Of a stretch of DNA of 64,000 bases, positions 29,696 to 62,077 are shown in pieces. Where the stretch lies: the NCBI GenBank assembly GCA_965223295.1, contig CBDCWC010000003.1, positions 128,001 to 192,000 on the forward strand, in the 5' to 3' direction. This DNA comes from Nitrospirales bacterium. Its GTDB lineage: Bacteria; Nitrospirota; Nitrospiria; Nitrospirales; UBA8639. A program made the position numbers and the translations under genes. Position 1 is the stretch's first letter. Every line of letters begins with the position of its first letter. Under the pieces are notes generated by a model, which was not told the DNA's origin, made no database searches, and saw only the letters and a program-made list of their open reading frames with translations.

Positions 29696-29892
29696 GAGTC
29701 TGTTGAAAAAAGCCACCGCCTACTCCGCCGGAGTAACTCAGTAGGTTACGAAGGCCGGGAGCGGCGTTCCCTGCCTTCGCCGAAGCGGCTTCGCGCAGGA
29801 GAGCGGACTTTTTGAACAGACCCAGCGCTGTTGATCGCTAAGGGTGTGATGGCGAAATATGGCCTTTGATATCCTCATTATTCAACACTCCC
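29696..29892 (+). mobile_element. MITE copy 7 (197 bp, modules A and B, central deletion)
   Basis: GAGTCTGTTGAA...TTCAACACTCCC; perfect TSD AGCAA at 29691-29695 and 29893-29897. Confidence 0.9.
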
Positions 29893-29942
29893 AGCAATCA
29901 TTTTCGCGATGAGCCTTAGCATGTCTTTAGAAAAGAACAGAC

Positions 29943-32225
29943 TCAACACAACGACGCATTCTCATTTCGACGCACAGCAGAAACCCGTCGCCGCCGTTCC
30001 TTCAAGATCACTTGAGAAAAGTCCTTGACGTCTGGAGCTTTGAGCCATGTTGTCAAATCCCTGGTCAATCTTAAACGCCACGAGGGATACGCAGAATCTG
30101 ATGCCCCAGGTAAATTTGGCGTATCCAGCTCACCCAACAAATCTTCCAATTGAACCATCAGTAAACGTGAAGGAGCTCGCGCGATAAACTGATACACCAA
30201 TTTCATCTGCTCATGGGAAAGACTGGACGGAAGTGCATCGGATCCTACCAACCCATTTCGATACAAGGCTTCCCATAACGCATATCGGTCTGCTTTTCGA
30301 GTCTCAAGATCTCGTGTCCAGTCTTCTTCTAACGGGTAGAGCTTCGCCTCCGCCTTCACGCCGATATCGCGTCCAGCCCAATATCCCTTAAGCGTGGGAA
30401 GATCATGTGTTGTGACTGCCGCCAGTGCCTGTGCCGGAAATTGAGAAGGTGCATGAAACGCTCCATGACGATCCCGCTCAAAAAATAACAATCGATAGGA
30501 AAGAATTCCTGCCTCTTCCAATTTCCCTCGAATAACAGGTGTGACCGTCCCTAAATCTTCACCAACCACCATCACCTTATGACGAACACTTTCTAAGGCT
30601 AGCACCGCTAACATTTCATCCACGTAGGTTTTGACATACAGACCTTCAAGCCCACTCTTCCCGAACGGAATCCAAAGCATGCGAAACAATCCCAGCGCAT
30701 GATCAATGCGCAAAACCCCGCCATGCCTCATGTTTTGGCTGAGCGTTTGACGAAAAAAATCATACTGATGCTTTCGCAGCACATGAGGATTTGGAGCCAG
30801 CAACCCCCAGTTTTGCCCTTGCAGGTTAAACGAATCTGGCGGCGCGCCAATGGTGGCATCCTGTCCCAATTGTTCTATAAAGTTCCAGGCATCCGCTCCA
30901 TCAGGGTGAACACCCACCGGCAAGTCATGATAGAGCCCTAAGCAGAGCGATGCCTTCTGTGCCACTTGATCCAATCGAGTCAACTGTAACTCACACAACC
31001 ATTGCACATAATAAAAATAGTAAAGGCGATCGGTATGCTCATGTTTAAATCGCTCAACGGCGGAAGAGGTTGACGCTTGAAATTCTCGAGGCCATTGCCG
31101 CCATGACGCACCTTGGAAATATTCACGGAGGCACTGGTACGTACAAAAATTCATTAAGTAAGAAGGACTTTGTTTAACAAATCGAAGAAATGATCGAGCA
31201 CGCGGCGTCCCTGCTTTAAGATGAATCCGCTTAAAAACGCGATACATATCTTCCAGAACTGACAGCTTTACATGCTCAACCGCGTCATAGTCTACGAGAC
31301 GGCTGGACCGCAGAGCCTTCAACAACCCTTGAAACTTCTTTGTCTTGGCCATGCGTTGCAATTTTGCTGAGGCACGAAATTCGGCTACTTGCTCCAAATT
31401 TAAATACAACGGATTCCAACAGAGTCGACTGGACGGCGAGTACGGACTTCGGAGGCCCGGGGTTAAACTATGAAGCGGCTGTAGACCAATCGTCGACGCT
31501 TTCAACGTTTTCCCGGCCGTTTTCATGATGCGTTCCAAATCGCGAAAATCCCCAATGCCCCAATTATCGCAAGAACGCACACCATAGAGTTGTACCCCAA
31601 TTCCCCATGCCTTCTTTGACTGTCGAGGAAGATAACAGCGCCGGGGAGCCGCAATCACAAAACTCTGCACTTCCAACAGACGAGACCCAAGACTGATGGC
31701 AAGGTGTAGTTCGTAATATCCTAAACGAAGGCGCTCGTGCACACTGACCTGAATTCGCACATAGCGAAAACCTCGAATCTGATTTTCTTCAAGCAAGACA
31801 CAGGACGATCCTTTCACACGAAAGGATCGAACTTTCCCTTGTTCATCTTTCAGACCACATTGGAGTGAGATAGTCTCAAAAGCCTCATTTCCTAACGGAA
31901 GCGCCAGCGTAAAGCACAAGGGAGTACGCGCTTCTACATAGTGCAAGAGCACGGGCTCGATTACTTGAGTCCACTGTTTTTCTTGAATGCATACCCACTC
32001 CCGGTGAATATCTGCATCAGAAACAACGTGAATACCTAACGCCCGCAATATGCTGTGAATGTCATCATCCTTGGCCTGATGCCGCTGTTCCCTTCCATCC
32101 ACATAATCACATTCCACACCAACGGCCTCTGCTAGTCGGCGCAAATCATTATCTGAAGAAATCATCTGGCAATTCTGAGCAGATTCAGAATGACTCGTCT
32201 TTCTTTCTGCGACTTCAACCATCAT
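29943..32225 (-). CDS. malQ: 4-alpha-glucanotransferase (GH77)
   Basis: WGIGDFRDL, SPYSPSSR, YHDLPVG, GAPPDSFN..GQNWG, RIDHALG, GEDLG, TTHDLPT. Confidence 0.95.
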   Translation of the reverse strand: MMVEVAERKTSHSESAQNCQMISSDNDLRRLAEAVGVECDYVDGREQRHQAKDDDIHSILRALGIHVVSDADIHREWVCIQEKQWTQVIEPVLLHYVEARTPLCFTLALPLGNEAFETISLQCGLKDEQGKVRSFRVKGSSCVLLEENQIRGFRYVRIQVSVHERLRLGYYELHLAISLGSRLLEVQSFVIAAPRRCYLPRQSKKAWGIGVQLYGVRSCDNWGIGDFRDLERIMKTAGKTLKASTIGLQPLHSLTPGLRSPYSPSSRLCWNPLYLNLEQVAEFRASAKLQRMAKTKKFQGLLKALRSSRLVDYDAVEHVKLSVLEDMYRVFKRIHLKAGTPRARSFLRFVKQSPSYLMNFCTYQCLREYFQGASWRQWPREFQASTSSAVERFKHEHTDRLYYFYYVQWLCELQLTRLDQVAQKASLCLGLYHDLPVGVHPDGADAWNFIEQLGQDATIGAPPDSFNLQGQNWGLLAPNPHVLRKHQYDFFRQTLSQNMRHGGVLRIDHALGLFRMLWIPFGKSGLEGLYVKTYVDEMLAVLALESVRHKVMVVGEDLGTVTPVIRGKLEEAGILSYRLLFFERDRHGAFHAPSQFPAQALAAVTTHDLPTLKGYWAGRDIGVKAEAKLYPLEEDWTRDLETRKADRYALWEALYRNGLVGSDALPSSLSHEQMKLVYQFIARAPSRLLMVQLEDLLGELDTPNLPGASDSAYPSWRLRLTRDLTTWLKAPDVKDFSQVILKERRRRVSAVRRNENASLC

Positions 32226-32634
32226 AGAGTTGTGAATGAATTAGGAGAGAGGGTGGGGGATGAAATCCTACTCCTAAATTCCAGAAAAATAACAGGATTT
32301 ACAAGTTTTACACTCTTTTGAGATACCATAAATAGGACGTTAGGGCAAGAAAAAACCCTTACACAGTTACCAGAGTATTATTTCAAGCTTCACAAGGAAC
32401 TTAATCACCATGGCGGACAAGAAAACTGACCAAGATGTAGATACTCTTACGCCTCAGAAACATCATTCTGGCTGCCATAGCAAACCGACATATTCTACTA
32501 GTCCCAATTGGTCATTGGTAAAAATGTGTCATTCGTTTTACAATAACCTAGAAGAAAACATTGCAACCCAAACTTCACGGAACACCAACATCCACGAAAA
32601 TTCTGGCAAATCACTTTAACAACAAGGAGGCATT

Positions 32635-32871
32635 ATGGATTCAGATACACGAGTCATCCTTTGCGGAGGGTTAGCACTAGTCACCGGCATTTTATTAGGA
32701 ACAGGGCTAGGCCTCTTAATGGCCCCACAAACGGGCCGACGAACACGCAGACAAATTAAAAACTACATCCACGACACGACCGACCGTATGAACGACATGG
32801 CGGGAGAAACCAAAGACCGAATGTCCGAATTCATGGACAAAGGCAAACGCTTCGTCGAAGACCGGATTTAA
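32635..32871 (+). CDS. YtxH-domain protein
   Basis: GILLGTGLGLLMAPQTGRRTRRQI; SD AAGGAGG. Confidence 0.85.
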   Translation: MDSDTRVILCGGLALVTGILLGTGLGLLMAPQTGRRTRRQIKNYIHDTTDRMNDMAGETKDRMSEFMDKGKRFVEDRI

Positions 32872-32940
32872 CACAGAATAGGATGCTTATATCTTAACAG
32901 CAGCGCCATCGCTACAAATGTAGTATGGCGCTCTTTATCA

Positions 32941-32978
32941 GGGGTCAGACTCGAATTAATTAATTCGAGTCTGACCCC
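32941..32978. repeat. Perfect 38-bp REP-like palindrome (copy 1)
   Basis: GGGGTCAGACTCGAATTAATTAATTCGAGTCTGACCCC equals its own reverse complement. Confidence 0.9.
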
Positions 32979-33005
32979 TAAATTAAAAAGTTATTCATGC
33001 GCGCG

Positions 33006-35129
33006 TTAAGCACGCAGGCGCATGAGGGCCATGGCGCGGCCTTCGACTTCATAGATCTTCCCGCCTCGCCAGGTTTTTGGAATATTCTTATCATTAGTCG
33101 TCGCCGTATCAAAGACCCATTCCCACGCGACACCCTTTTTATGAGCAGGCAAGGTAAACGTCACAGGCTCATGATAGGCATTAAGTAATAATAAAAACGA
33201 ATCATCAATAATCGGATTCCCGAGTTCATCCATTTCTTCAATGGCGTCACCAGCCAATCGAATCCCTAACGTTAACAGACCTTTGTCCCAATCTTCTTCG
33301 GTCATTTCTTTGCCATCGCTGCCAAACCAGGCTATATCTTTGACTTCAGAATCTTTAATCTGTTTGCCTTGAAAAAATCGCCGCCGATGAAACACGGGAT
33401 GTTCCTTTTTTATAGCAATCAGCTGTTTCACAAATTCCAAAAGTTCAAGTTGCGTCTTCGTCAGATTCCAATCAAACCAGCTAATATCATTATCTTGGCA
33501 ATAGGCGTTATTGTTGCCTCCCTGTGTGCGCCCAATCTCATCTCCCCCACAAATCATGGGCACGCCTTGAGATAACAATAAGGTTGCGAAAAAATTCCGC
33601 TTTTGACGATCCCGCAATTGCTGGATGGCAGGATCGTCTGTTGGCCCTTCCGCCCCGCAATTCCAACTATCATTGTCATCTGTGCCATCCCGGTTGCCTT
33701 CTTGATTCGCGTCATTATGCTTCTGGTCATAGGACACTAAATCCGTGAGGGTAAATCCATCATGCGCGGTCACAAAGTTAATACTGGCATAGGGTTGCCG
33801 CCCACTTCGGCCATAGAGATCACTACTCCCGGCCAACCGCGAAGCAAACTCCCCGAGCAACCCGCTGCCGCCTTTCCAAAATCCTCGAACCACATCCCGG
33901 TATTTTCCGTTCCATTCGGCCCACCCCGGCGGAAAATTCCCGACTTGATAGCCCCCCTCGCCTAAATCCCAGGGTTCAGCAATAAGTTTCACTTGAGACA
34001 AAATTGGGTCTTGATGAATAATATCGAAAAAAGCACTCAGCCGATCCACATCATGAAGCTCACGCGCTAATGTCGAAGCCAAGTCGAAACGAAACCCATC
34101 GACGTGCATATCACAAACCCAATAGCGCAAACTATCCATAATCATCTGCAAGGTTCTGGGATGTCTCACATTAAGCGTATTGCCGCATCCTGTGTAATCC
34201 ATGTAGTAGCGGGGATCATCTGGCGACAACCGGTAATAGGCCGCATTATCAATGCCCCTAAAAGACAGGGTAGGGCCGAGATGATTCCCTTCGCCCGTAT
34301 GGTTATACACCACATCTAAGATCACTTCGATGCCCGCGCTATGCAGTGTTTTGACCATTGTCTTAAACTCATATACTTTCCGGCCTTCCCGCGGAAAGGC
34401 TGAGTATCGAATATCGGGTGCAAAGTACCCGATGGAGTTATATCCCCAATAATTGTTGAGCCCCTTTTCTACGAGGAATTGATCATTTACAAAATGGTGT
34501 ACGGGTAGGAGCTCGACCGCCGTCACACCTAGTGATTGCAAATGGGCAATCATTGGAGGAGAAGCCAATCCTTCATAGGTCCCTCGAAGGCGTTCAGGCA
34601 CATCGGGATGATTCATCGTAAAGCCTCTGACATGCACTTCATAAATCACCGTCTGCGCCCATGGGATTTGTAGCAACCGGTCATTCCCCCAAGAAAAAGA
34701 CTGATCAACAACCATACACTTAGGCACATTGCCCGCATTGTTCCGTTCATCTATGGATAAATCCGCGTCGGATTGTCCTATTTGATAGCCAAACATGGCA
34801 TCCGACCATTTCACCGTGCCCGTAATCGCTTTGGCATAAGGATCAATGAGGAGCTTGTATGGATTAAAACGATGCCCAGCGGATGGATCATACGGGCCAT
34901 GCACGCGATAGCCATATAAATGTCCCGGCCTGACTTCCGGAAGATAGACATGCCACACCAAATCCGTACATTCTTCCATGGGTAAACGAACGGTCTCCCG
35001 CTGTTGATGTTCGGAATCAAACAAACAGAGGTCTACACCTGTGGCGTTTTCCGAGAACAACGCAAAATTCACGCCTTCACCATCCCACGTTGCCCCCAAA
35101 GGATACGGACGTCCCGGCCGTTGTCTCAT
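33006..35129 (-). CDS. glgX: Glycogen debranching enzyme (isoamylase, GH13)
   Basis: [61 protein letters not shown]; start ATG 35129. Confidence 0.96.
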
Positions 35130-35317
35130 CGCGATTGCTCCTTCACCATTCAAACGCCACAGGGCACTCACTTCACCATTCCGTGCCCATCAAACTTCAA
35201 GCCTACCCTGCATTGTTACGGTAACAGGCTCTCCCGATACAAGAAAGACCTAAAACAATTCTCTGCTCAATATTTTTCGCATGCCCACCGTGACGTACAA
35301 GAAAAGCATGCTAGAAT

Positions 35318-35508
35318 GGGGCTGTTGAAAAAAGCCACCAGCGGCGTTCTCGCCATTTTTCCGTGCTCACGTAATACTAGTACGCTCCGCGCGCAGAATT
35401 GGCTGCGGCCTTGCTGGACGGACTTTTTTGAACCGCTCCAAAGCTTTTGGTATCCGATATAATCCTGAGCAAATTTGCCTCTGACGTTTTGTATTATTCA
35501 ACACTCCA
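35318..35508 (+). mobile_element. MITE copy 8 (191 bp)
   Basis: GGGGCTGTTGAA...TTCAACACTCCA; flanks AGAAT and ACAAT (1 mismatch). Confidence 0.88.
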
Positions 35509-35562
35509 ACAATAATTCTTCCACGTTAACGAAAAATCTCTCTAAAACATTCTTTGAAAGTC

Positions 35563-37458
35563 ATGCCACGTCGAACCACTCCACCTCTCTCGTCTTCCCC
35601 ACGCAACCCACCGCTCGGGGCCGTCGTCACCGGCCCGTCACAGGTCACCTTCCGAGCCTGGGCTCCGTGGGTGAAAACACTTTCGGTAAAAATTTTGGGC
35701 CATCAACCGGAAGTCGTGACGATGCAGCCTCAACCTTACGGGTATTGTGAGACAACTGTAGCCAACATTGGCGCAGGGACTCGCTACCAATATCTTCTCC
35801 ATGAAAAACTTACCCGACCAGACCCAGCCTCTCGCTTTCAACCTGAAGGGGTACATGGCCCCTCAGAGGTTGTCGATCCTTCGGCTTTTCCCTGGACCGA
35901 CCACGCATGGAAAGGGCTGCCGCTCTCGGACTACATCATCTATGAACTCCATCCTGGCACCTTCACCAAATCCGGGACCTTTGACGGCATCATTCCCCTC
36001 TTACCTTATTTACGCGATACCGTCGGTATCACCGCGATTGAACTCATGCCCATTGCCCAATTTCCAGGATCCAGGAATTGGGGCTATGACGGCACCTATC
36101 TGTTCGCTCCGCAAAATAGTTATGGCGGGCCACAAGAACTCCATCGCCTGATCAACGCCTGCCATTCGGCAGGACTCGCGGTAGTCTTGGATGTGGTCTA
36201 TAACCATCTCGGGCCCGAAGGCAACTACTGGGGAGACTTTGGCCCCTTTTTCACAGATCACTATCGTACTCCATGGGGTAGCGCCATCAACTACGATGGG
36301 CCGCATAGTGACGCTGTGCGAGATTTTATCATTTCCAATGCCGTGTATTGGACACGCGACTTCCATATTGATGCCCTTCGACTGGATGCCATCCATGGCA
36401 TCTACGATGCCAGTGCCTCGCATATCCTGAAAGACCTAACCAGCGCCGTTCATGCCGCGGCCAAACAAGAAGACCGATCCGTATGGGTTATCGCCGAAAG
36501 TGATTGGAACGACAGCAAACTCATCACGCCCCCATCAAAAAGTGGCCTTGGCCTAGATGCTCAATGGAACGACGACTTCCACCATGCGCTCCATGCAGCA
36601 ATGACCGGCGAGCGAAACGGCTACTATCAGGATTTTGGCTCACTCGATCATGTGGCCACGGCCTTTCGGAAACATTTTGTGATCTCTGGACACTACTCTC
36701 ATCATCGGCACCGCCGTCATGGCAATTCTGCGGCACACCTGTCGCCTGAAAAATTTGTCGTGTTTACACAAAACCATGACCAAATCGGCAACCGTGCGCA
36801 GGGGGACCGGCTTTCAACGCTCATCCCAATGGCCGCGCAACAAGTGGCCATCGCATCGGTGCTGCTTTCTCCGTTTATCCCACTTCTGTTCATGGGCGAA
36901 GAATATGGAGAACAGGCTCCGTTTCAGTATTTTATTGACCATGGCGATCTGGGTTTAATAGAAGCCGTCCGGAAAGGCCGGTTAGCCGAATTCAAACCCT
37001 TTGGCTGGAAAAACATCCCTGATCCTTATGATGTGGCGACGTTTGATGCTTCTCGCCTCACTCCACTCGACAGCCATACTGAAACACACCAACGCATGGC
37101 AGCTTGGACCTCTAAGCTTATCGCCTTACGAAAACAACATGCGTCGTTAGACACCGGAGTCAAAGGCCATCAGCTCCGCGTCTGGGTCAATCCGTCCAAA
37201 ACCATCCTTACCCTCTACCGAAAAAACCCCGAAGCCGAAGCCATGCTGCTCATCCTGGGATTCAACGACCAGCCCACTTTACTCACACTTTCCCAACCCA
37301 AAGGCCAATGGTCTCTCTTGTTAGACAACAGCCACCCCGACTTTGTTGAATCCATCAAAGACCCAACAACGCAAGCTCTAAAAGAAATAGATCTGACCTC
37401 GGGCAAACAAGCCTTCACCCTTCCCTCTTTCTCTGCCTGGATCTACACACAAGCCTAG
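35563..37458 (+). CDS. treZ: Malto-oligosyltrehalose trehalohydrolase
   Basis: PDPASRFQPEGVHGPS, RNWGYDG, DVVYNHLGPEGNY, LRLDAIH, QNHDQIGNRAQGDRL. Confidence 0.95.
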   Translation: MPRRTTPPLSSSPRNPPLGAVVTGPSQVTFRAWAPWVKTLSVKILGHQPEVVTMQPQPYGYCETTVANIGAGTRYQYLLHEKLTRPDPASRFQPEGVHGPSEVVDPSAFPWTDHAWKGLPLSDYIIYELHPGTFTKSGTFDGIIPLLPYLRDTVGITAIELMPIAQFPGSRNWGYDGTYLFAPQNSYGGPQELHRLINACHSAGLAVVLDVVYNHLGPEGNYWGDFGPFFTDHYRTPWGSAINYDGPHSDAVRDFIISNAVYWTRDFHIDALRLDAIHGIYDASASHILKDLTSAVHAAAKQEDRSVWVIAESDWNDSKLITPPSKSGLGLDAQWNDDFHHALHAAMTGERNGYYQDFGSLDHVATAFRKHFVISGHYSHHRHRRHGNSAAHLSPEKFVVFTQNHDQIGNRAQGDRLSTLIPMAAQQVAIASVLLSPFIPLLFMGEEYGEQAPFQYFIDHGDLGLIEAVRKGRLAEFKPFGWKNIPDPYDVATFDASRLTPLDSHTETHQRMAAWTSKLIALRKQHASLDTGVKGHQLRVWVNPSKTILTLYRKNPEAEAMLLILGFNDQPTLLTLSQPKGQWSLLLDNSHPDFVESIKDPTTQALKEIDLTSGKQAFTLPSFSAWIYTQA

Positions 37459-37474
37459 ACTCGCTGAAGTAGAT

Positions 37475-38020
37475 ACCCACGGGCTTACGCCGCGTGGCAC
37501 TTAAAGTTCAAATTCAAGTTGAAGCTGCCCTTTGTCCACTCGTTCTTGATGCTCCACGTACCGCCGGATTACGGCCTCACTCAACCCCACCGTCGAAGAG
37601 AAAAATCCCGGAGACCACAACACTGCTCCCCAGTACGTCCGCTTCAGTTCGGGATATCGAAGTCCCAGTTGTCGACTCAAATTGGCTTTCATCTTGCCCA
37701 CAATACTCGAGACTGCATATTTCGGAGGGATCACCACCACCATGTGAATATGGTTAATCTGCACACTCCATTGCTGGACCTCTACCTCAGGATGAAAAGG
37801 TTGAATCTGAGGTAATTGCTCCTGGACAAAGAGTTTGATTGCCCCCGCAAAATGCGCCGACGATACTTGGGAATCCACACCACATGATAGTGGTGCTGAT
37901 AGGCCCCATGGCCACTGAGGCGAACTTCCATGCGCCATAATCATCAAAAATCCCTCATGTGGCAAGGAGCCCCCCGCTTCCAGCGGGGAGCGCTTTCACC
38001 CACAGGCTCACGCCGCGTGG
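37475..38020 (-). mobile_element. IS200/IS605-family element (tnpA only)
   Basis: Related hairpins ACCCACGGGCTTACGCCGCGTGG (37475-37497) and ACCCACAGGCTCACGCCGCGTGG (37998-38020) in direct orientation around a Y1 transposase; exact ends uncertain. Confidence 0.85.
37501..37931 (-). pseudogene. tnpA: IS200-family HUH/Y1 transposase with a frameshift in a G5 run
   Basis: ATG 37931 gives MEVRLSGHGAYQHHYHVVWIPKYRRRILRG; the frame shifts at 37842-37846 to AIKLF...NHIHM (HUH)...KMKANLS...LWSPGFFSSTVG...IRRYVEHQ. Confidence 0.88.
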
Positions 38021-38035
38021 TCCTCCGCGCTAACT

Positions 38036-38236
38036 TTGATAGCGGGACGGAAACTGGACCAGCTTGACTCAGTCATTGCCATGAAGGAACGACGCATTCC
38101 TTTAGGAAATCGCCTAGAAGCATTAACTGGCACTCGAAGAAATCAACACTGCATTCGAATCAACCAACAATATCGTATTTGTTTTGTTTGGACGAATGCT
38201 GGACCAGAACAGGCTAAAATAGTTGACTATCATTAA
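38036..38236 (+). pseudogene. higB: HigB (RelE-like) toxin, 5'-truncated at the IS end
   Basis: RKLDQLDS...GNRLEALTG.R..QHCIRINQQYRICF.W...IVDYH is the C-terminal part of HigB; the N-terminus is absent. Confidence 0.82.
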
Positions 38237-38251
38237 TGTCCACCCCAGGAG

Positions 38252-38569
38252 TTGGTCATGATACGCATTCCCACTCATCATCCTCCCACTCATCCTAGGG
38301 AAATGTTATTAGAAGAATTTCTGGAACCGATGGAATTAACTCAACGTGATTTAGCAAATGCCATTCATGTCCCTTATCAACGCATTAATGAAATCATCAA
38401 TGAACGACGAGGCATCACACCGAGTACAGCACTAAGATTAGCGAAATTTTTTGATATGTCCGCTGATTTTTGGATGAATGTCCAGTTGCGTTGGGACTTA
38501 TATCATGCTCAACATGCTGAAGAGAAAAACCTCCAGACCATCGATTCATATTCCCCCGCTGCCAGATAG
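38252..38569 (+). CDS. higA: HigA antitoxin (Xre HTH)
   Basis: PTHP.EMLLEEFLEPM.LTQ.DLA.AI.VPYQRINEIIN.RRGITPSTALRLAKFF.MSADFWMN.Q. Confidence 0.9.
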   Translation: MVMIRIPTHHPPTHPREMLLEEFLEPMELTQRDLANAIHVPYQRINEIINERRGITPSTALRLAKFFDMSADFWMNVQLRWDLYHAQHAEEKNLQTIDSYSPAAR

Positions 38570-38600
38570 CAAGCTAAGACAGAAACCCTTCTAACAATTT

Positions 38601-38843
38601 TATCGAAAAAACCTAAACGCAAAAGCTCTGCTGCTCATCCTAGAATTCAATAACCAACCTACCCCCCTCACACTTTCCCAACCGAAAGGCCAAGGGTCTC
38701 TCCTCCTAGACAACAACCGACCCGACTTTGTTGAATCCAAAAGCAACACAACCACAAATGCCCCTGTCTCACTGGACCTAAATTCGGTCAAACAAACCAT
38801 CACATTCGAGGCCTACAAAGCACTGGTCTACACACACAAGTGA
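38601..38843 (+). pseudogene. Diverged orphan copy of the treZ 3' end (80 codons plus stop)
   Basis: Colinear without indels with treZ 37216-37458; 48 of 80 aa identical by manual count; no start codon. Confidence 0.88.
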
Positions 38844-38865
38844 GACATCGCCATGCTTTGACTAA

Positions 38866-38903
38866 GGGGTCAGACTCGAATTAAATAACTCGAGTCTGAC
38901 CCC
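38866..38903. repeat. 38-bp REP-like palindrome (copy 2)
   Basis: GGGGTCAGACTCGAATTAAATAACTCGAGTCTGACCCC, 2 differences from copy 1. Confidence 0.9.
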
Positions 38904-38920
38904 TAATACTATTCAAACTT

Positions 38921-41125: not shown

Positions 41126-41180
41126 TGCCAACCGTAATCTTCTATGTTAACTAGAAAGAGTCTAACAAATTTGCCAGCTT

Positions 41181-42774: not shown

Positions 42775-42784
42775 TCAACCGATC

Positions 42785-47560: not shown

Positions 47561-47748
47561 GGGACTGTTGAATAATGACGATATCAAAGGCCATATTTCG
47601 CCAGGAAGCCCTTAGTGATCAGCAGCGTCTGGTCGTAAAAAAGTCCGTCCAGCAAGGCCGCAGCCATTTTTGCGCGCGGAGCGTACTAGTCCTACGTGAG
47701 CATGGAAAAAGGGCAAGAACGCCGCTGGCGGTTTTTTTCAACACACCC
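47561..47748 (-). mobile_element. MITE copy 9 (188 bp, reverse)
   Basis: GGGACTGTTGAATAAT...TTCAACACACCC; perfect TSD CTTCA at 47556-47560 and 47749-47753. Confidence 0.9.
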
Positions 47749-47848
47749 CTTCAAGAACCTTGGCTACCAAAGCTTGAACTTCAAGAGAAATTAATGATTC
47801 AATTCATTTCTGTCTTGTTTTGTCTTGTCCATCGAAGGAAACCCTTAC

Positions 47849-49799: not shown

Positions 49800-49818
49800 A
49801 AAGGTTCCTGACACCTTT
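49800..49818. repeat. Short REP-like hairpin
   Basis: AAAGGT-TCCTGAC-ACCTTT just downstream of metX; shares the CTGAC core with the 38-bp palindromes. Confidence 0.4.
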
Positions 49819-49832
49819 AATATGTATGTTAC

Positions 49833-51626: not shown

Positions 51627-51653
51627 ACTATTGCCTTTGAGATCTAGCGTCGC

Positions 51654-52955
51654 CTAGCGACTTGCCTGCAGCGCTTGCTCTAGATCCGCGATGATGTCAG
51701 CAGCATCTTCGATCCCAACGGAGACGCGGATGTACCCTAGCGTGACGCCTGCTTTCACTTGTTCTGCGACCGTAAGTTGCTGGTGAGTCGTTGAGGCGGG
51801 ATGGATCACGAGTGTTTTCGCATCGCCAATATTGGCAAGGTGGCTCGCCAGCTTGACGTTATCGATAAACGTTTTCCCTGCCCGTTCGCCACCTTGAATG
51901 CCAAATCCAAGAATAGCCCCGGCACCGGCGGGCAAATATTTCTTAGCAACCTGATGATGAGAATGGCTCTCAAGGCCAGGATAGTTAACCCACTCGACGA
52001 GTTCGTGTCCTTCGAGAAATTTTGCGACCGCCAAAGCATTTTCACAGTGACGCGGCATTCGTAAATGCAACGTCTCAAGTCCCTGGAGAGTCAGAAAAGA
52101 GGCAAAAGGGCTCATGGCCGCACCGGTATCACGCAGCCAATGCGTCCGCATATGCAAGATATACGCAATATTGCCCATCGGGCGTAGAGCTTCTTCGAAG
52201 ACGGTGCCGTGGTACGAAGGTGAAGGTGCACAGAATTCCGGCCAACGCTTTGGATCATCAGCCCATGGAAAATTCGCACTATCAACAACCGCACCACCAA
52301 CATGTACACCATGTCCACCAATGAATTTGGTGGTCGAATAGACAACGATATCAACTCCATGCTCAATCGGCCGCAGGAGCATCGGCGTCATGACCGTGTT
52401 ATCACAGATCGTGGGAAGATGGAGTGCATGCGCGGCATCCGTAACCTTTTTGAAATCAGGAACATCGTTTTTCGGATTACCCATGCTCTCGAAGAACACA
52501 CAGCGAGTGTTCTCATCTGCGAGTTCAGCAATCTGCTCGGGTTGATCCGACTCAAAGAACCGGACTTCAATCCCAAGATTTTTGAGCGTCGTCGTAAACA
52601 GGGTCCATGTCCCACCGTACAGACCCGTAGAGGAAAGAAAGTTCTGGCCTGAATGGCAAATTGTCAGTAAGGCCGCCATAGTTGCGGACTGGCCAGATGC
52701 AAAGCTTAAGGCCGCCGCGCCACCGTCCATGGCAGCCAAGCGCTTTTCAAGCACATCGTTAGTCGGATTCATAATCCGGCTGTACACATTCCCAAACTCT
52801 GACAAGGCGAATAAACTTGCCGCATGATCAGTATCATTAAATACATAGGAAGTTGTCGCGTAGATCGGAACGGCACGTGCATTCGTCGTCGGATCAGGTT
52901 CCTGTCCCGCATGAACCGCCTTCGTGCCAAGACCGTGAGGGGTGCTTTCACTCAT
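51654..52955 (-). CDS. metY: O-acetylhomoserine aminocarboxypropyltransferase (sulfhydrylase)
   Basis: ARAVPIYATTSYVF, YSRIMNPT, YSTTKFIGGHG (PLP lysine), LANIGDAKTLVIHPASTTHQQL. Confidence 0.95.
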   Translation of the reverse strand: MSESTPHGLGTKAVHAGQEPDPTTNARAVPIYATTSYVFNDTDHAASLFALSEFGNVYSRIMNPTNDVLEKRLAAMDGGAAALSFASGQSATMAALLTICHSGQNFLSSTGLYGGTWTLFTTTLKNLGIEVRFFESDQPEQIAELADENTRCVFFESMGNPKNDVPDFKKVTDAAHALHLPTICDNTVMTPMLLRPIEHGVDIVVYSTTKFIGGHGVHVGGAVVDSANFPWADDPKRWPEFCAPSPSYHGTVFEEALRPMGNIAYILHMRTHWLRDTGAAMSPFASFLTLQGLETLHLRMPRHCENALAVAKFLEGHELVEWVNYPGLESHSHHQVAKKYLPAGAGAILGFGIQGGERAGKTFIDNVKLASHLANIGDAKTLVIHPASTTHQQLTVAEQVKAGVTLGYIRVSVGIEDAADIIADLEQALQASR

Positions 52956-53137
52956 TTCTTCGCTCCAATCATTTTGAGATGAGGAATAGATAAAAAGCCG
53001 AGTGTAAGTGGGCAGCAAAGTACCAAAGGATTCACAGAAGGGTCAATGAATCATCTGAGAGTTGGCTTGCATCGTGAGGATTTCCTCTAAGAGAGCACTT
53101 TTGATAGCAGAAAACTACAGATTCTAGCCGTAAAAAT

Positions 53138-56100: not shown

Positions 56101-56665
56101 AAGCCGGATCCTGGGTTGCGCGCAGCAAGACAGCCAACTCGGTGGGCATGCCTAAAAACGTCTGACACACATTCCCATGATTGGTGATCGCAATGAAACC
56201 TTTCCCAAGGCGATCAACTAAATTGACTTCAAAACGCGGAATGACACGGGCAGTCTTTGATCCGGAGTGAGATGGCAACGAACCTTGCAATAACTGCTGC
56301 GAAAGCTCTTCTTGGCGAGATTTTCTGGCATTTGCTACTGGGAAAGCATCCGGCACGAGTAAATTGACCGTCGTCAACAAGGCACAAATCACATGTTTGC
56401 ACTGCGTTGAAGCCGTCCATGCGTGGCATCGGCAAGAATAGGCCAATTTCCCCTTTTGAACTAGAAACGTCACGGCATAATATTTTGATCCTCGCACCGA
56501 CGCAGCGAGGATCGTTCGCGAACGGTTCCAACTATACGACTCTAACCGGCCCTGAACGTAGTAGTCATAACCACGAAGCACAAAGGCTTTGGGAGCCAAA
56601 AAATAAATATGATTGGGAGAGAGGGCTTTAAGATGTTCGAGAACACCTGAGGGTTCTAGGGCCAT
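53138..56665 (-). CDS. SWIM zinc finger plus SNF2-family helicase/ATPase
   Basis: CRC...CKH SWIM motif; LRPYQ, LADDMGLGKT, DEAQ, TGTPLEN, LRRTK, FSQF, SLKAGGQGLNL, DPWWNPAVENQASDRAHRIGQ. Confidence 0.95.
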   Translation of the reverse strand: MALEPSGVLEHLKALSPNHIYFLAPKAFVLRGYDYYVQGRLESYSWNRSRTILAASVRGSKYYAVTFLVQKGKLAYSCRCHAWTASTQCKHVICALLTTVNLLVPDAFPVANARKSRQEELSQQLLQGSLPSHSGSKTARVIPRFEVNLVDRLGKGFIAITNHGNVCQTFLGMPTELAVLLRATQDPAWSVQEALRDFLKHHGQAFPLYFEDMHGRTLVEWAPSMTYIIKTELDVSKGNVTVAARSFRFGVAQEQAQLFLGMVVDLGAGKLAPVDNELGWVLYDMLAEQVNERSEMPRGISRNKSVRKMAASSVQWNEGEARDLRPMLTIPVRNFAQLQIDLPKKDLSHLLGAVQFKIEGREVDLIQTDGTEIPKPQRNRLTVMPEAWLVDEPLLETNAASLVAECWQGEGFGATSEQIFSFYLVVERGLSVSSGLRSKKRRAALYDTFFQLCRAKTSAAGKRLIKACLRQEEFGPFRIKAEAEELLNFFSVPLLEESLRLLVHDGQWCVIPNDWAKEALLYRIPYEIWGLPIFENMISHDVMSLSQEALYAGLPECYAKTAEAGIELFFQDKPVSTGDWDCSVDASRPPTIDWFELRPEIMCDGVRLEAHEIQTILDRGGIMEVDGQVRIVDQDTQEILRTLTALSSSKLPKKSHEGKPVVVQVPKLQILDWVALRKRGVKITLSPEDEALVDRLLNFERIDRRPLPKKLQAKLRPYQQEGYRWLGFLYQHRLGACLADDMGLGKTIQAISLLAGIHEGVIESPSQQLGPHLVVLPPSLLFNWEQEMTRFYPNFNIHHYVGKERQTDFAHADVVLTTYGLVRRDIVILEQQMFHVIFFDEAQAVKNILAGTTGAARRLKGYFKCVMTGTPLENHVGEYYSLMDLCVPGLLGEYESLKGKLKAPSPELLRTIMQRTKPFVLRRTKSQILKELPQKIETDIYLELTDRQKSLYQQTVATIRSTIASAYRTKTASQARIIALTAILKLRQICLSPRLIQQDSTDTSPKLGCVVERLEELMDEGHSALVFSQFTSYLDLVEQEFQAHHIPYVRLDGSTPTPTRKKIVQEFQESHKAMVFLLSLKAGGQGLNLTKASYVFHLDPWWNPAVENQASDRAHRIGQKQKVSIMRLLMRHTIEEKMMALKQQKMELYNAVLEGASHKGGGAGLTQKDFEFLLE

Positions 56666-56998
56666 TGACTGTCAGCTATCCGTCCTTTAGCCATAGAATA
56701 TTCGTGATGCCGCAAGAAAAAAACTGTTCTCACGCATAAAAAAAGTCAGGCAGAAATGTCTGCCACCGCATAAGAGGAATGAGACACAAATTCACAAACG
56801 ACGCGACCAAGTTTTCATGACAAGGTTCTGTCAGAATACGGCAAAGGATTGAGAAATGGAGAGACAGCTCCACAATGTTTTGCTCAAACAAGGTATAGTA
56901 CCATCGCTACCCGTGGATGGTCATCTTCTAGAGGCAACAGAAGAAGTGCGGGAAGAGCGCTAGAAACGAGAACAACGATTAGAGGAATAGATTAAACG

Positions 56999-57775
56999 CT
57001 ATTGAAGATCTTGGACTACAACGGTCCCTTGCATAGAACCAAGATGCAGATCGCAGTGATAGGGAAACACGCCAGCCTCCTTGAATACATGCTCGAACCT
57101 CTGCCCAGGTTTGTTGACCGTGAGTCCACTATTAAACACTTGCCCCCCACCGGAACAATCATTCACACGGCAAGCCCCGCTCGTCACACTATGCGGTTCT
57201 TGAGCACCATCTGCATACACCCACACGATTTTTTCATCTGGCTGGATGGTCACTTCTGAGGGTACAAAGAAAGTCGGGGCTCGAAAAACCACTACGACGG
57301 CACCAATGGTTTCTGACGCCAGTCCCTCCTTGAAAGAAGTCGGAGCACGGGGTTCCCGAGCTATGGACAAAAATTCATCCTGCGCTGGATCAATCTCACA
57401 TGTTTTGCCTTCAGCAGCCTTCACCACAACAGCATCCACATGATCGTAGACCGCATGGGAGACTAAGCCCAACAAAAGGCCATCGTCTTTCACAATGTTC
57501 ATGACAACCGTATCACTTTGCCCCTTGGTTTCCTGAACTTGCAAGAGGCAATGTTCAGAGTTCAACTTCCACGTCAATTCTACAAAAAATGGATGGCCCA
57601 CTTCGTTTTTGTCAACGAGCACGATCTCTGCTCCAGATTCTAAATCCAAGCCAAAATCTAAGACCATATCACCAACTTCCCAGCCTATTGTAGCATGTAC
57701 CGTGACTGGAACTATCGACATCACGACGCAAAGGATTGTTTTCGTGATACCATGCTGGAGACCCATTTTCCTCAT
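56999..57775 (-). CDS. Secreted protein with a C-terminal cupredoxin (plastocyanin/azurin-like) domain
   Basis: Signal peptide; FVPSEVTI, PHSVT, YHCDLHLGSMQGTVVV (H/C/H/M type-1 Cu ligands). Confidence 0.85.
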   Translation of the reverse strand: MRKMGLQHGITKTILCVVMSIVPVTVHATIGWEVGDMVLDFGLDLESGAEIVLVDKNEVGHPFFVELTWKLNSEHCLLQVQETKGQSDTVVMNIVKDDGLLLGLVSHAVYDHVDAVVVKAAEGKTCEIDPAQDEFLSIAREPRAPTSFKEGLASETIGAVVVVFRAPTFFVPSEVTIQPDEKIVWVYADGAQEPHSVTSGACRVNDCSGGGQVFNSGLTVNKPGQRFEHVFKEAGVFPYHCDLHLGSMQGTVVVQDLQ

Positions 57776-57895
57776 AACTTATTTCTTAAAAAGTGATAGG
57801 TCAATCTCACTTCCGACCCGTACTATACTGATGAGCGATCACAGATCAAACCGGCAGTCTTAATAGATAAAACCTGAAGAGAGAAGAACGTACGT

Positions 57896-58456
57896 TTAAA
57901 ATCCAATCCCAATACCGACACCACCGCCGACACCGCCACCTATGCCTCCTCCACCAAATATACCATAGCGCGGGCCGGGAGATGCGGGTTGGTTGATTTC
58001 AGCTTCCGGCCAAACATGTAAATGTTTGACCTGCAAGGTTGGATAGCGATATTCCATCTCATCAAGATTGGCACTCGTGACGCCTGAGATTTCACCCACA
58101 AGCGTCACCCGGGTACTGGCAGGAAGAGTTGCAGGATCCAGAAAAGCTGATTCTAACGCGAGAAATCGGCCTTCCGAAGTCGTCCGATCAAGAACAGGTT
58201 CTTGCGAATCATCTAACGGGAGATGCAAGATTTCAAGCCGGGTCCCATTAGCAAGACGTTTCGCAGAAAGCACTTCGCCTCCCAAAAGTACCACAGAACC
58301 TTGATGGACAGTTGGGTCCTCAAGAATTTCTGGAAAAGTTAGGGCTGGATCAATAACCTCTTTGAAGCTCTCAGGGACGACATCTGGACCAGACGCACAG
58401 CCAGCTCCAAACAGCAAAAGAACACTTAACAGCAATCCAAACATGTGAGTATGCAT
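57896..58456 (-). CDS. Slp-family outer-membrane lipoprotein
   Basis: Lipobox GAG-C; LGGEVL, GRFLA...FLDPA, YRYP...LHVW; Gly-rich tail. Confidence 0.88.
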   Translation of the reverse strand: MHTHMFGLLLSVLLLFGAGCASGPDVVPESFKEVIDPALTFPEILEDPTVHQGSVVLLGGEVLSAKRLANGTRLEILHLPLDDSQEPVLDRTTSEGRFLALESAFLDPATLPASTRVTLVGEISGVTSANLDEMEYRYPTLQVKHLHVWPEAEINQPASPGPRYGIFGGGGIGGGVGGGVGIGIGF

Positions 58457-58582
58457 GAAAAGCCCTATTAGATCTGAGAAACTCTGGCCTCAGCACGATT
58501 CCCGTCAGAGACGAAGAAATCTATAAAAACAAGAGAAAATAAATGGAAAGAAACGAAAAGCTTAGATGAGGCAACTAACTCT

Positions 58583-58771
58583 TCAGTAAAGAGGCGCTTG
58601 AGGGCCAGGCCGTAATCCCACCAAATCTGGGTCTTCTCCATCGAGAACAGGACGCATTTCTTGGCTTTCAGCTTTCCGTTGCTCCCGACGAGCTTCTTTG
58701 TCTTGTTGCTTCATTCTTTTCATCATCTCCCGATTACGTTTGGCTTGAGTCACCTTGGCTGGGCGTCCCAT
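58583..58771 (-). CDS. Small basic hypothetical protein
   Basis: SD GAAAGGAGGT; KRNRE...KQQDK...RK and EDPDL.GL.PGPQ. Confidence 0.7.
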   Translation of the reverse strand: MGRPAKVTQAKRNREMMKRMKQQDKEARREQRKAESQEMRPVLDGEDPDLVGLRPGPQAPLY

Positions 58772-58963
58772 ATGTGACCTCCTTTCGTGAGTAAATCTTT
58801 AACGCATAGGCTTGTCTCTCAAAAAAGAGAAGTAACCACTACAGAAGAAAACCCTAATGTTTTCAATATAATCTTCCCAAAATAAACGCCTCAGACTAAC
58901 ACCCTCCTGAAGGGGAGTCAAATTGTCAAGATGTTGTGGGACAAGGAACTTTCATCACAGCTT

Positions 58964-59151
58964 GAGACGGTTGAATAATGATGATATCAGCGGCCACATC
59001 TAGTTTCTAAGACTTAACATGTAAGAGGCCTCGGTCTGTTCAAAAAAGTCCGCTCGCCTGCGCGAAGCCGCTTTCAGCCTTCGTAGCTACTGCGGCGAAG
59101 GAAACCCGGCGAAGGCAGGGAACGCAGCTGGCGGTTTTTTTCAACAGACCC
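58964..59151 (-). mobile_element. MITE copy 10 (188 bp, reverse; module B nested in module A)
   Basis: GAGACGGTTGAATAAT...TTCAACAGACCC; flanks AGCTT and AGTTT (1 mismatch). Confidence 0.88.
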
Positions 59152-59187
59152 AGTTTTCAAAACCACCATCTCAAGCATATCCCAACG

Positions 59188-59787
59188 TCACAGCTCCACT
59201 TCTTCACCTTTCGGAACCCATTCTTTGGCTAACCGCTTGGCGTCTTGAATCTGATCAGGGCGCAAGGCTTTCTCCAGAAAATCCAAAGCCAACACCGCCG
59301 GCTCTACACCCTGTTGAGCAGAAAGATACGCCCATTTATAGGCTTCAACCACATTTTTCTCGATGCCTTCACCTTCAAAATACATGAGCCCCAAATGATT
59401 TTGCGCTCCACCATTTCCTTGTTCCGCTGAGCGACGAAACCAGCGTAACGCCTCTTTATAATTTTGCTGCACTCCCAAACCTTGTCGGTACATCGCCCCC
59501 AGATTGTTTTGCGCCCTCGCGTGGCCCTGGTCTGCGGCTAATCGATACCAGTGATGCGCTTGTTCAAAATTCTGAGTCACTCCTTGCCCATACCGATACA
59601 TATATCCCAGCATGTTTTGTGCTTCGGCATTGCCACGTCCCGCCAAGGGCCGCCATTCTTCAAGAGCTCTTTCAAAATCTCCCTGCAGGTAGGCTTCTTC
59701 GCCAGCCAGAAAATTTCCCCATGCTGGAAGCGCCGTGACTACAAACCATAGAAGAAGAATGACCTTCACGTATCTCAGATATTTCAT
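59188..59787 (-). CDS. Sel1-like repeat protein (secreted)
   Basis: Three AQN.LG.MY..G.GV repeats; signal peptide. Confidence 0.93.
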   Translation of the reverse strand: MKYLRYVKVILLLWFVVTALPAWGNFLAGEEAYLQGDFERALEEWRPLAGRGNAEAQNMLGYMYRYGQGVTQNFEQAHHWYRLAADQGHARAQNNLGAMYRQGLGVQQNYKEALRWFRRSAEQGNGGAQNHLGLMYFEGEGIEKNVVEAYKWAYLSAQQGVEPAVLALDFLEKALRPDQIQDAKRLAKEWVPKGEEVEL

Positions 59788-59974
59788 ACGTCCTCTTGTC
59801 AGCTTCACCTCAAGTTCTCCCAACTCAGAGATACAACTGTTTTGGCGTCAGAATAACATCGTGTCCACTCTTATCAAACCGCAGCGCTGGATAATACTTC
59901 CAACATAAGGACTCTTATGTATTCTATCATAGTTCAGCATCAACACCGATACACATCAGAGTCAGTCCACCTGA

Positions 59975-61798
59975 CTACGATCTCCCAGAATAGGCTTGGC
60001 GATTCTCCTCAAGCTCGGCCCATCGGATATAAAGCTGTTCTAACTCCTGCTCCGTTTGCCTTAACGCTTCATAGACTTCTTGAAGGCGTAGATGATTCGC
60101 GGCAATCATTGGATCGTCTATCGTCGCACGACAAGCCGCACATTCCTCTTCAACTTGGAGAATACGTGCTTCCATCCCATCATATTCCCGTTGTTCCTTA
60201 AACGAAAGCTTCTTGGGCTTTGGCTCCCGTGGATCTCCATTGCCTCTAGTGGAAGAAGAGGTCTTTTGCTTCAAAGGAGTGTGCTGAGCGTTCAACCACG
60301 CCTCCCATTGAGCATATGTAGCGAAACTCCCAGACGCTCCCTTCCCATCGAGCCCAATAAATTCCGTACAGACTTTTTCCATCATGTAACGGTCGTGCGT
60401 AACTAAAATCAGCGCGCCGGGAAACTCCTTAAAACTTTCCTCAAGAGTCTCCCGGGTTTGAATATCCAAATCGTTTGTTGGCTCATCGACAATGAGTACG
60501 TCAGCGGGCGTTAACATAAATCGAGCTACCACGGCACGAGCTTGCTCGCCACCAGACAATAGCTTCACCGGCAACTCTAATTGTTCTGGTTGAAAACCGA
60601 ACCGCTTGGCCCAACCGGCTATATGAATAGTCTGTCCTCGATAGGTGACCGTATGGCCTGTATCCGAAAGTGCCCGTCGCAATGTCATCTTGAGATCCAA
60701 TTGTTCACGATTTTGATCAAAATAGACGACTTGTAGATGCTCGGCATATTTGACCGTCCCCTCATCGGGATCCAATTCTTTTGCTAACAGTTTGAGAAGT
60801 GTTGATTTGCCTGAGCCGTTATGGCCTAAGACTCCCAGGGCTTTACCTGGAGAAAGCATCACCTTAAGATTTTGAACGATACGGTGCGAACCGAATGCTT
60901 TTCGAAGTCCGGTGACTTCAATAAGCTGCCGGGTTTGTCGGCCTAAACCGACAAAATCTATTGCGACCTTCTGTTGACGTAAACGTGTGGCGGTTTCAGC
61001 TAATTCATTCTGTAAGGCATGGGCGGTCTCCACGCGATACTTAGCTTTCGTCGTCCGCGCCTTCGGACCCTGACGCAACCAGGCTTCTTCACGCCGAACT
61101 TTACCTGCCAAGGCTTGCGCCTGTTGCTCCTGTGTCTCGTGAAAGGCATCTCGTTTTTCCAAAAAATGTGAATATGTTCCCTCTACAGCGAAAAGACCTT
61201 CCACGTACCGACTATGTAGCTCTACCACTTTTCTTACGGTGCGATTTAAGAACCATCGATCATGACTGACGAGCGCCCACGCCCATGGAGCTTGCACGAG
61301 TAATTGCTCTAACCACTGCAGGCTGTCCAGGTCGAGATGATTTGTGGGTTCATCTAACAACATAACATCCGGATCCTGCATCAAGCCGCACGCAATCGCT
61401 AAACGTTTTTTCAATCCTCCTGACAAGGGACCGATCGGTTGGGCAATATCATCAAATCCAATACGCCCTGCGATTTCGTATATGCGAGCCTGGACTTCAT
61501 TGTCTGACAGACCAGAAGCGCGGACGCTCTGCTGCAGCACCGCACCCACTGTCATACCATCTGCAAACTCGTTGGCCTGAGGCACATAGACGACACGCAA
61601 ATGCTGGCGCCGTGTGACCTGCCCTTCATCCGGAGCTTCAAGCCCTGCAAAAATTTTTAAAAATGTGGATTTACCTGCCCCATTCGGACCAATAATCCCT
61701 ACCCGATCGTTCTCAGCAATCCCAAACGTGACGCCATGAAATAACTGTTGAGCCCCGAATGATTTTTGAATTTGTTGAGCGTAAATCAATGCCGACAT
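59975..61798 (-). CDS. ABC-F ATPase (Uup-like)
   Basis: Two ABC domains (GPNGAGKST, LSGG, LDEPTNHLD; GHNGSGKST, DEPTNDLD), PKARTTKAKYR linker, KLSFKEQRE C-terminal domain. Confidence 0.92.
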   Translation of the reverse strand: MSALIYAQQIQKSFGAQQLFHGVTFGIAENDRVGIIGPNGAGKSTFLKIFAGLEAPDEGQVTRRQHLRVVYVPQANEFADGMTVGAVLQQSVRASGLSDNEVQARIYEIAGRIGFDDIAQPIGPLSGGLKKRLAIACGLMQDPDVMLLDEPTNHLDLDSLQWLEQLLVQAPWAWALVSHDRWFLNRTVRKVVELHSRYVEGLFAVEGTYSHFLEKRDAFHETQEQQAQALAGKVRREEAWLRQGPKARTTKAKYRVETAHALQNELAETATRLRQQKVAIDFVGLGRQTRQLIEVTGLRKAFGSHRIVQNLKVMLSPGKALGVLGHNGSGKSTLLKLLAKELDPDEGTVKYAEHLQVVYFDQNREQLDLKMTLRRALSDTGHTVTYRGQTIHIAGWAKRFGFQPEQLELPVKLLSGGEQARAVVARFMLTPADVLIVDEPTNDLDIQTRETLEESFKEFPGALILVTHDRYMMEKVCTEFIGLDGKGASGSFATYAQWEAWLNAQHTPLKQKTSSSTRGNGDPREPKPKKLSFKEQREYDGMEARILQVEEECAACRATIDDPMIAANHLRLQEVYEALRQTEQELEQLYIRWAELEENRQAYSGRS

Positions 61799-61853
61799 AC
61801 TCGTTTCAACCCAGAACCTTCCCGAGAGACAAGATATTTTTCTGTTCCTCTTT

Positions 61854-62077
61854 GGGAGTGTTGAATAATGAAGTTATCAAAGGCCATATTTCTCCAGGAA
61901 GCCGTTCGACATCAACCACATCGGGACGGTTCAAAAATGTCGTCCAGCAAGGCCACAGCCATTCCCGGCCTTCGTAGCTCACTTCGGCGGAGTAGGCTTT
62001 GCGCGCGGAGCGTACTGGCACTACGTGAGCACGGGAAAAGGGCGAGAACGCTGCTGGCGGATTTTTTCAACAGGCCC
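61854..62077 (-). mobile_element. MITE copy 11 (224 bp, reverse, module B)
   Basis: GGGAGTGTTGAATAAT...TTCAACAGGCCC; perfect TSD TCTTT at 61849-61853 and 62078-62082. Confidence 0.9.

Follow-up and report, generated by a model that had tools for sequence, protein, structure and literature searches.

How do DNA segments of only 23-42 nt come to interrupt a larger mobile element, and one another, at the same few places? The question is raised by a 64,000-nt stretch of the genome of a Nitrospirales bacterium (GenBank assembly GCA_965223295.1, contig CBDCWC010000003.1, forward-strand positions 128,001 to 192,000), which we call the window and number from its first letter. The window holds copies of a miniature inverted-repeat transposable element (MITE), several of which carry tiny inserts, here termed modules. 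The original prediction described two types of module, A and B, and proposed that they are hairpins inserting independently into MITEs, possibly by means of an HUH/Y1 enzyme. Our analysis suggests a different balance. The modules would be optional cassettes of a modular MITE, left by a few old, seamless insertions of micro-elements resembling repetitive extragenic palindromes (REPs), and would now travel mainly as passengers; we give this reading a probability of about 55%.

The genome that holds the window comprises 3.78 Mb in three contigs and has a G+C content of 47%. Its MITE content was assessed with a profile built from 161 uninterrupted copies, which matched 287 foldback loci genome-wide (E<=0.01), and with hidden Markov model (HMM) profiles of the two MITE ends. 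The end profiles, which set the element boundaries, gave 247 paired elements and 55 unpaired ends, and the copy number is about 250-300. When aligned to the MITE profile, 185 of the 247 end-defined elements lacked any indel of at least 8 nt, and the other 62 carried one. The inserts are confined to a few positions of the MITE model, as follows.

Module A, 34 nt, after positions 40 and 109/110.
Module B, 42 nt, after position 30.
Module B, 34 nt, after position 88.
B-like module, 33 nt, nested within A.
Module C, 23-24 nt, after position 103, with a C-like form after 114/115.
Module D, 26 nt, nested within A.

The two predicted types are therefore real, and two further modules, C (23 nt) and D (26 nt), exist beside them. 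B occupies three sites overall (after 30, after 88 and inside A), and nesting reaches three levels, with the B-like module or D inside A inside the MITE; both had been anticipated. The module junctions are seamless, with a boundary ambiguity of at most 1 nt (4 nt for D), and a target duplication was found at no module junction. The base that follows each B insert is adenine. The modules were also searched for over the whole 3.78-Mb genome with nhmmer HMM profiles (E<=0.01; best E-values of 4e-10 for A and 9e-13 for B). All 58 matches to A, all 25 to B and 13 of the 14 to C lie within 150 nt of a MITE match, and the earlier impression that modules do not occur outside MITEs thus holds genome-wide. 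Re-reading the sequence at each module and each empty copy bore out every coordinate and sequence in the original prediction, together with its statements on seamless junctions, empty sites and the adenine after B.

The distribution of A among its sites is the main evidence on how it spreads. Just two flanks, with their variants, account for the 48 left junctions of A: GCGTTC at position 40 (29 junctions) and GCTGGA at position 109 (19 junctions). With few exceptions the end variants of A follow the site, being CCTGCC/GGCAGG at 40 and CCTGGC/GGCGAG at 109/110. A starts with CCTGCC in 13 of the 22 copies that follow the modal flank GCGTTC and with CCTGGC in 10 of the 13 that follow GCTGGA; it ends in GGCAGG in 6/7 copies before TCGCCA and in GGCGAG in 21/27 before CGGACT. 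A free intermediate able to use either site would be expected to mix these variants, and they remain almost unmixed. The copies in the window illustrate the arrangement.

3779-3945, plus strand: copy 1, a foldback with module A (CCTGGC...GGCGAG) at 3884-3917, after model position 109.
4754-4889, plus strand: copy 2, an uninterrupted foldback that supplies empty sites.
8717-8846, plus strand: copy 3, an uninterrupted foldback.
15243-15408, plus strand: copy 4, a foldback with module A at 15346-15379 (position 109).
23446-23582, plus strand: a MITE foldback, uninterrupted.
29690-29825, plus strand: copy 7, centre-deleted, consisting of the left end to position 30, a 42-nt B (29718-29759), positions 31-40, A and the right end.
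29770-29803, plus strand: module A of copy 7, a recombinant with a left end of the position-40 type and a right end of the position-110 type; the right MITE end follows from position 110.
35313-35449, plus strand: copy 8, an uninterrupted foldback with empty sites.
47620-47752, minus strand: copy 9, an uninterrupted foldback with empty sites.
59026-59156, minus strand: copy 10, centre-deleted, with a 67-nt composite at 59053-59119 that joins the MITE at position 40 on its left and at position 110 on its right.
59053-59119, minus strand: the composite of copy 10, module A interrupted by a nested B-like insert of 33 nt (59074-59106).
61912-62081, minus strand: copy 11, whose foldback is intact apart from a B of 34 nt (61964-61997) inserted after model position 88.

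A had been placed at one and the same position in copies 1, 4, 7 and 10. This is right for the right junction (109/110), whereas copies 7 and 10 have their left junction at position 40. These two copies do lack the central MITE segment, and the probable cause is a recombinational deletion between A at 40 and A at 109/110. The same products recur throughout the genome: at least 18 of 308 clusters have A directly between two MITE ends (L A R in 10, L B A R in five and B A R in three, where L and R are the ends), and in none of the 308 does A flank the core on both sides. By our own row count hybrids between B at 30 and a nested B number about eight, and one element combines B at 30 with B at 88. 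All four combinations of presence and absence are seen for B at 30 with A at 40, and again for B at 30 with A at 110. The two sites of A, the variants tied to them and the recombinants therefore indicate that the modules spread mostly by riding on MITEs and by recombination, and not by free hopping. The suggestion that A traces to a single ancestral insertion comes close, although at least two founder sites are needed.

The history that we propose begins with one founder insertion for each pair of module and site. Each would have entered single-stranded or extruded hairpin DNA, favouring unpaired spots and a C^Y junction (a C before the insert and a pyrimidine after it). Transposition would then have copied the module-bearing MITEs, and homologous exchange (gene conversion) would have moved modules between copies. 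Recombination between like modules within one element would have deleted the DNA between them and so produced short forms such as copies 7 and 10. In this genome the MITE family would thus diversify by cassette gain, by exchange between copies and by deletion between repeated cassettes.

Several observations weigh against this history. On a tree of the MITE backbones the 18 carriers of A at 110 need 18 changes and the 13 carriers of A at 40 need 12, neither set showing any clustering; likewise, the six carriers of B at 30 need six changes and the eight of C at 103 need eight. Eight of 12 control polymorphic backbone columns do cluster when they are omitted from the tree. No backbone column marks the carriers, with the sole exception of the junction base beside C. 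Such scatter is not predicted by descent from one module-bearing master copy, and it can be reconciled only with frequent exchange among copies, with modules homing repeatedly to the same site or with a star-like burst. Moreover, the modules diverge by 5.6% compared with 10.0% for the surrounding backbones (p 9e-7), the best-kept 34-nt stretch of backbone diverging by 6.9%. The lower divergence of the modules fits later arrival, or constraint on the modules, better than pure hitch-hiking. Taken together, the non-clustering carriers and the low module divergence demand that copies exchange modules frequently, that modules home repeatedly to the same site or that the modules are under constraint. 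The 3' flank AGCGGC can also be read as common to B at 30 and the nested B, which hints that the insertion of B may be directed by sequence. Finally, no orthologous pair of filled and empty sites was seen in this lineage, and so neither passenger spread nor active insertion is directly observed.

The same observations are what would be expected if the modules were still mobile, with a trans-acting enzyme of HUH/Y1 or other type filling matching empty MITE sites and the MITE serving as the preferred niche. The scattered carriers, the low divergence of the modules relative to their hosts and the seamless junctions without duplication all agree with such homing, as do the three sites of B, two of which may share the flank AGCGGC. 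Two features of A in other phyla, described below, point the same way, namely its preference for C^Y flanks and loops and a pair of empty and filled sites in one deltaproteobacterial genome. We nevertheless consider active homing rather unlikely here. A is restricted to two sites in about 60 copies, its variants stay with their sites, identical architectures recur across species, and modules were found beside none of the five Y1_Tnp loci of this genome and beside only one of 20 in distant genomes. The predicted preference for MITEs is borne out as confinement to them, which hitch-hiking explains at least as well as targeting; independent, ongoing insertion in this genome is not supported by the two sites, the site-tied variants, the forms common to other species and the many recombination and deletion products.

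Closely related DNA was examined for orthologous sites. The closest species genome, G063 (about 83% identity), is without the whole of copy 10 (59 nt compared with 265 nt between flanking matches) and of copy 11 (24 nt compared with 253 nt), and the module state therefore cannot be compared at these two loci. Among public-read contigs containing the stretch, which come from two studies, those of X1 and X2 hold 0.89 and 0.82 of the sampled words and those of X4-X7 hold 0.36-0.43. All of these contigs break at MITEs; the pieces of X1, for example, end at 59030 and 61958 and resume at 59150 and 62049. Joints that skip the 34 nt at 61963-61998 have short sides (19-35 nt) and can derive from paralogous copies, so the public-read contigs settle no orthologous presence or absence.

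A wider set of relatives was compared as well. The MITE family was matched in all 24 genomes sampled from the genus, and records bearing the same repeat carry the labels Nitrospira or Nitrospirales. Forms with A at 40, with A at 110 and with a deleted centre are also present in other species, and A at 40 occurs in divergent relatives of the MITE in other Nitrospirota. The exact core of A is found in 19 of 33 genus genomes (at least 90% complete), with 21 copies in the genome of the window and none in G063; the position-110 variant is abundant in the genome of the window, so that the abundance of A differs between lineages. In another genus all five B matches fall at the homologue of position 88, and two further genomes carry a 33-nt B at position 30. 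Matches to B were confined to the family of the window, in 4 of 301 genomes of the phylum, and a search for its pattern in five distant genomes found it in none. In G310, a genome from another genus of the family, MITEs at five loci hold cassettes that are absent from the window, among them an insert of about 45 nt near the centre (GCCTGACCTTCGGGCTC...) and a diverged A-like insert at position 40.

The presence of A at 40 in divergent MITE relatives of other Nitrospirota would also be expected if the original MITE had possessed all of the modules and the common 'empty' copies were repeated losses. Deletions between repeated modules clearly do occur, which adds to the case for such an ancestral long form. 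However, precise loss would need flanking direct repeats and none are present, the full set of modules is found in no element, and elements without a sizeable indel make up 185 of the 247. A also stands alone in unrelated repeats of other phyla, where 11 empty copies compare with one filled. An ancestral long form is thus quite improbable, and the modules are better read as cassettes gained by the MITE.

The nature of the host bears on how such passengers would travel. The MITE foldback is long (122 nt) and folds as DNA with a predicted energy of -37 kcal/mol. A conserved tail of about 70-75 nt has 256 genome-wide matches, of which 211 directly adjoin one of the 247 paired elements, and it terminates in an inverted copy of the MITE left end. 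Tails in the window are as follows.

29828-29892, plus strand: an example of the tail, following the foldback and ending in the outer right inverted repeat ...TTCAACACTCCC.
3943-4007 and 4883-4947, plus strand: other tails, adjoining foldbacks.
47561-47635, 58964-59038 and 61854-61928, minus strand: other tails, adjoining foldbacks.
21342-21406: a lone tail, with no MITE foldback match at E<=0.01 beside it.

The outer inverted repeats of the host, GGGNCTGTTGAA... and ...TTCAACASTCCC, show that terminal inverted repeats are present, and a third, internal copy of the terminal repeat closes the foldback. For foldback and tail together, a 5-bp target duplication was found in 39 of the 69 elements with both ends placeable (0.1 expected); none was found for the 122-nt foldback taken alone. 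From the adjacency of the tail and the duplication around foldback and tail, the host is therefore a non-coding MITE of about 200 nt, made up of the 122-nt foldback and a tail of about 75 nt, and not the foldback alone. A search for a Tn3-family transposase (PF01526) found none in the genome, other transposase families not having been searched; four pairs of MITE ends are spaced 0.9-4 kb apart. In a genome-wide alignment of 232 foldbacks, columns paired in the predicted fold co-vary among copies, with an r2 of 0.86 for model columns 13/126 and of 0.2-0.35 for 27/111, 29/108, 28/110, 45/92 and 62/74. The co-variation indicates that the hairpin is maintained by selection or by a symmetrising repair process.

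Predicted folding relates the insertion sites to this hairpin. Sites 40, 103 and 109 are unpaired in the prediction, 40 and 103 facing each other across one internal loop and 109 forming a bulge, and sites 30, 88 and 114 fall in predicted stems. The predicted folds were also inspected for B at 30 pairing across the foldback with A at 110, and such pairing is absent from them. Among the modules that were folded (A, B and C), the hairpin label given to them in the original prediction fits only A, for which a hairpin of 14 pairs is predicted (z -1.8 relative to shuffles); for B (z +1.0 and +1.3) and C (z +0.8) the predicted folds are no stronger than those of shuffled sequences. A search of Rfam 15 gave no covariance-model match in the window at the gathering score and none at E<=1 in four module-bearing loci. 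The 42-nt B at position 30 (29718-29759) corresponds to the 33-nt B at the same site in other genomes (two loci) with nine additional central bases (AACTCGATG-like), which may represent a further small insertion or an expansion of the loop.

A has the ends CCTGCC...GGCAGG and is composed of alternating GCTTCGC/GCGAAGC-like words, and by eye it has a core of about 18 nt in common with B. That composition, and the resemblance by eye of the A/B core GCCGCCAGCGGCGTTC to the left arm of the MITE, CGCCGGAGCGGCTTC (positions 25-40), would suit an origin of the modules within the MITE itself, through template switching or through a duplication of its own sequence driven by hairpins. The resemblance is short and GC-rich. 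An identical 34-nt A and 23-nt C moreover occur in other phyla without the MITE, which largely refutes a local origin for these two modules; we consider it a very improbable explanation.

Outside the genome A was searched for with a 26-nt core pattern, for which we estimate about 0.02 chance matches in the collection. At least 124 loci in at least seven phyla were found. By record label, the matches listed include 42 in Nitrospirota, 22 in Thermodesulfobacteriota, 38 in three unranked 'delta proteobacterium' label groups together, 10 in Myxococcota, five in Pseudomonadota, three in Bacteroidota, and two each in Zixibacteria and Nitrospinota. Among these listed matches, to which the figures for A in this paragraph refer, 79 of 121 analysed loci lie outside the Nitrospirota MITE context, and 72 of the 79 have both canonical ends, CCTGCC and GGCAGG. 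Their flanks are unrelated and come from several other repeat families, with A often in a hairpin loop. The two flanks of a locus reach a pairing energy of -8 kcal/mol or better in 27% of cases, compared with 5% when partners are permuted. Among 71 distinct flank pairs, the base 5' of the insert is C in 56 and the base 3' is C or T in 68.

The clearest case is G067, from a record labelled Deltaproteobacteria. A hairpin CACCCTCACCCTCCCC-CGTCGAA-GGGGGAGGGG, with close variants, is empty 11 times and filled once, by exactly 34 nt of A between ...CTCCCC and CGTCGAA..., with no target duplication. Because A has the same 34-nt boundaries in unrelated repeats across phyla, and because of this pair of empty and filled sites, we regard it as a true insert, a discrete and self-contained unit. 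The core of C occurs 54 times in G067, five times in G070 and twice in G066, reversed-pattern controls giving none, and at one locus an identical 23-nt C lies beside an inverted C-like copy and an A. At loci L149-L159 of G067 the intergenic DNA is a mosaic of adjoining tiny GC-rich units (A, C, C-like inverted partners and CCCTC/GAGGG hairpins). The core of A was found at one locus in viral contigs, and so there is no sign that phages carry it.

On deeper timescales, A at least behaves as an independent micro-element with seamless entry into other hairpin repeats across phyla, and C probably does likewise. A broader form of this idea would make A and C micro-transposons far below MITE size, inserted seamlessly into unpaired hairpin spots (C^Y) by a putative widespread enzyme in at least seven phyla. 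Their niche would consist of MITEs and REP-like hairpins, the Nitrospira-type MITE being one host that they had colonised heavily. We advance this broader proposal tentatively and regard it as doubtful in its full extent.

A natural candidate for the enzyme is of HUH type, which is mechanistically reasonable for seamless insertion into single-stranded hairpins; it is possible but unsupported. The genome has five Y1_Tnp loci, and no module match (E<=1) lies closer than 3 kb to any of them. Of 20 Y1 loci from four distant A-bearing genomes, only one has A in its flanks (about 1.5 kb on each side); five others of that genome, with an equal match score, are without A. The link to HUH/Y1 enzymes drawn in the original prediction thus finds no support in the neighbourhoods of these genes. 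The Y1 gene of the window (37504-37965, minus strand), which is IS200-like, aligns in its frame with only positions 39-121 of the 121 in the Y1_Tnp model; the model start gives a separate, weak match. It belongs to a cassette at 37216-38803 that also includes a HigB-like/helix-turn-helix pair (38036-38566). It lies between two direct repeats of 155 nt, at 37216-37370 and at 38601-38755, which share 78% identity and duplicate the 3' end of a gene of the GH13 alpha-amylase family. A near-perfect palindrome of about 40 nt, AGGGGTCAGACTCGAATTAA...TTCGAGTCTGACCCCT, is present in two copies (32936-32987 and 38857-38908) and is unrelated to the modules.

The words of the A and C sequences were not found in the literature searched. 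A search pairing Nitrospira with miniature inverted-repeat transposable elements returned nothing relevant, as judged by title and start of abstract, and a full-term combination on repetitive extragenic palindromes nested in or inserted into hairpin loops returned no report. Four known systems nevertheless invite comparison; the first three below have only single features in common with the modules, and the fourth offers the nearest description.

In IS200/IS605-derived palindrome-associated transposable elements (PATEs), insertion depends on end hairpins that differ from each other and on a target of 4-5 nt located 5' to the site of insertion. The modules resemble them in inserting seamlessly without target duplication and in being structured and probably acting as single strands. 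In contrast, A is a single predicted 34-nt hairpin with only a C^Y preference (C in 56/71 and C or T in 68/71, among the matches listed) and no association with TnpA.

The pneumococcal BOX element has modules A, B and C, and ERIC has internal inserts. Like these and the Correia elements, for which 155- and 107-bp forms are described (Delihas, 2008; PMC2229807), the host described here is a MITE that forms a hairpin, has optional segments at set internal positions and occurs in shorter forms that arise by internal deletion. Unlike in those families, the optional segments here are themselves repeat families of other phyla and hosts, nested three deep.

REP sequences, BIMEs and REPINs with their RAYT (TnpA-REP) transposases (Bertels and Rainey, 2011; PMC3116915) share with the modules short GC-rich units, palindromic by prediction in A, mosaics and the lack of a target duplication. 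C also adjoins an inverted C-like copy in one deltaproteobacterial locus, which adds to the likeness. The differences are that modules flank no RAYT/Y1 gene apart from the one in 20 distant loci, that B and C do not fold as hairpins and that modules are never free-standing in this genome. The tetranucleotide GTAG/CTAC is a feature of REPs, and A is without it.

The fourth comparison is with the small dispersed repeats SDR1-8 of Nostoc punctiforme and its relatives, reportedly of about 20-40 nt and said to have been described by Elhai et al. in 2008. We know of no enzyme for them. As described, they are very small units found inside other repeats and inside one another, and the modules here nest likewise. 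SDR1-8 and the modules may be unrelated in sequence, and most module copies here are tied to fixed sites of one MITE. SDRs are reported only in Nostocaceae (PMC5861425), whereas module A occurs in at least seven phyla. If a 34-nt hairpin enters unrelated repeats in many phyla without duplication, mobile DNA extends to sizes far smaller than MITEs and some insertion activity must have gone unrecognised; for annotation, such units would account for a class of GC-rich 'mosaic' intergenic repeats. In its behaviour A ranks with the smallest mobile DNA units known, and in our judgement the modules are best classed as real nested micro-elements of the kind described for the cyanobacterial SDRs.

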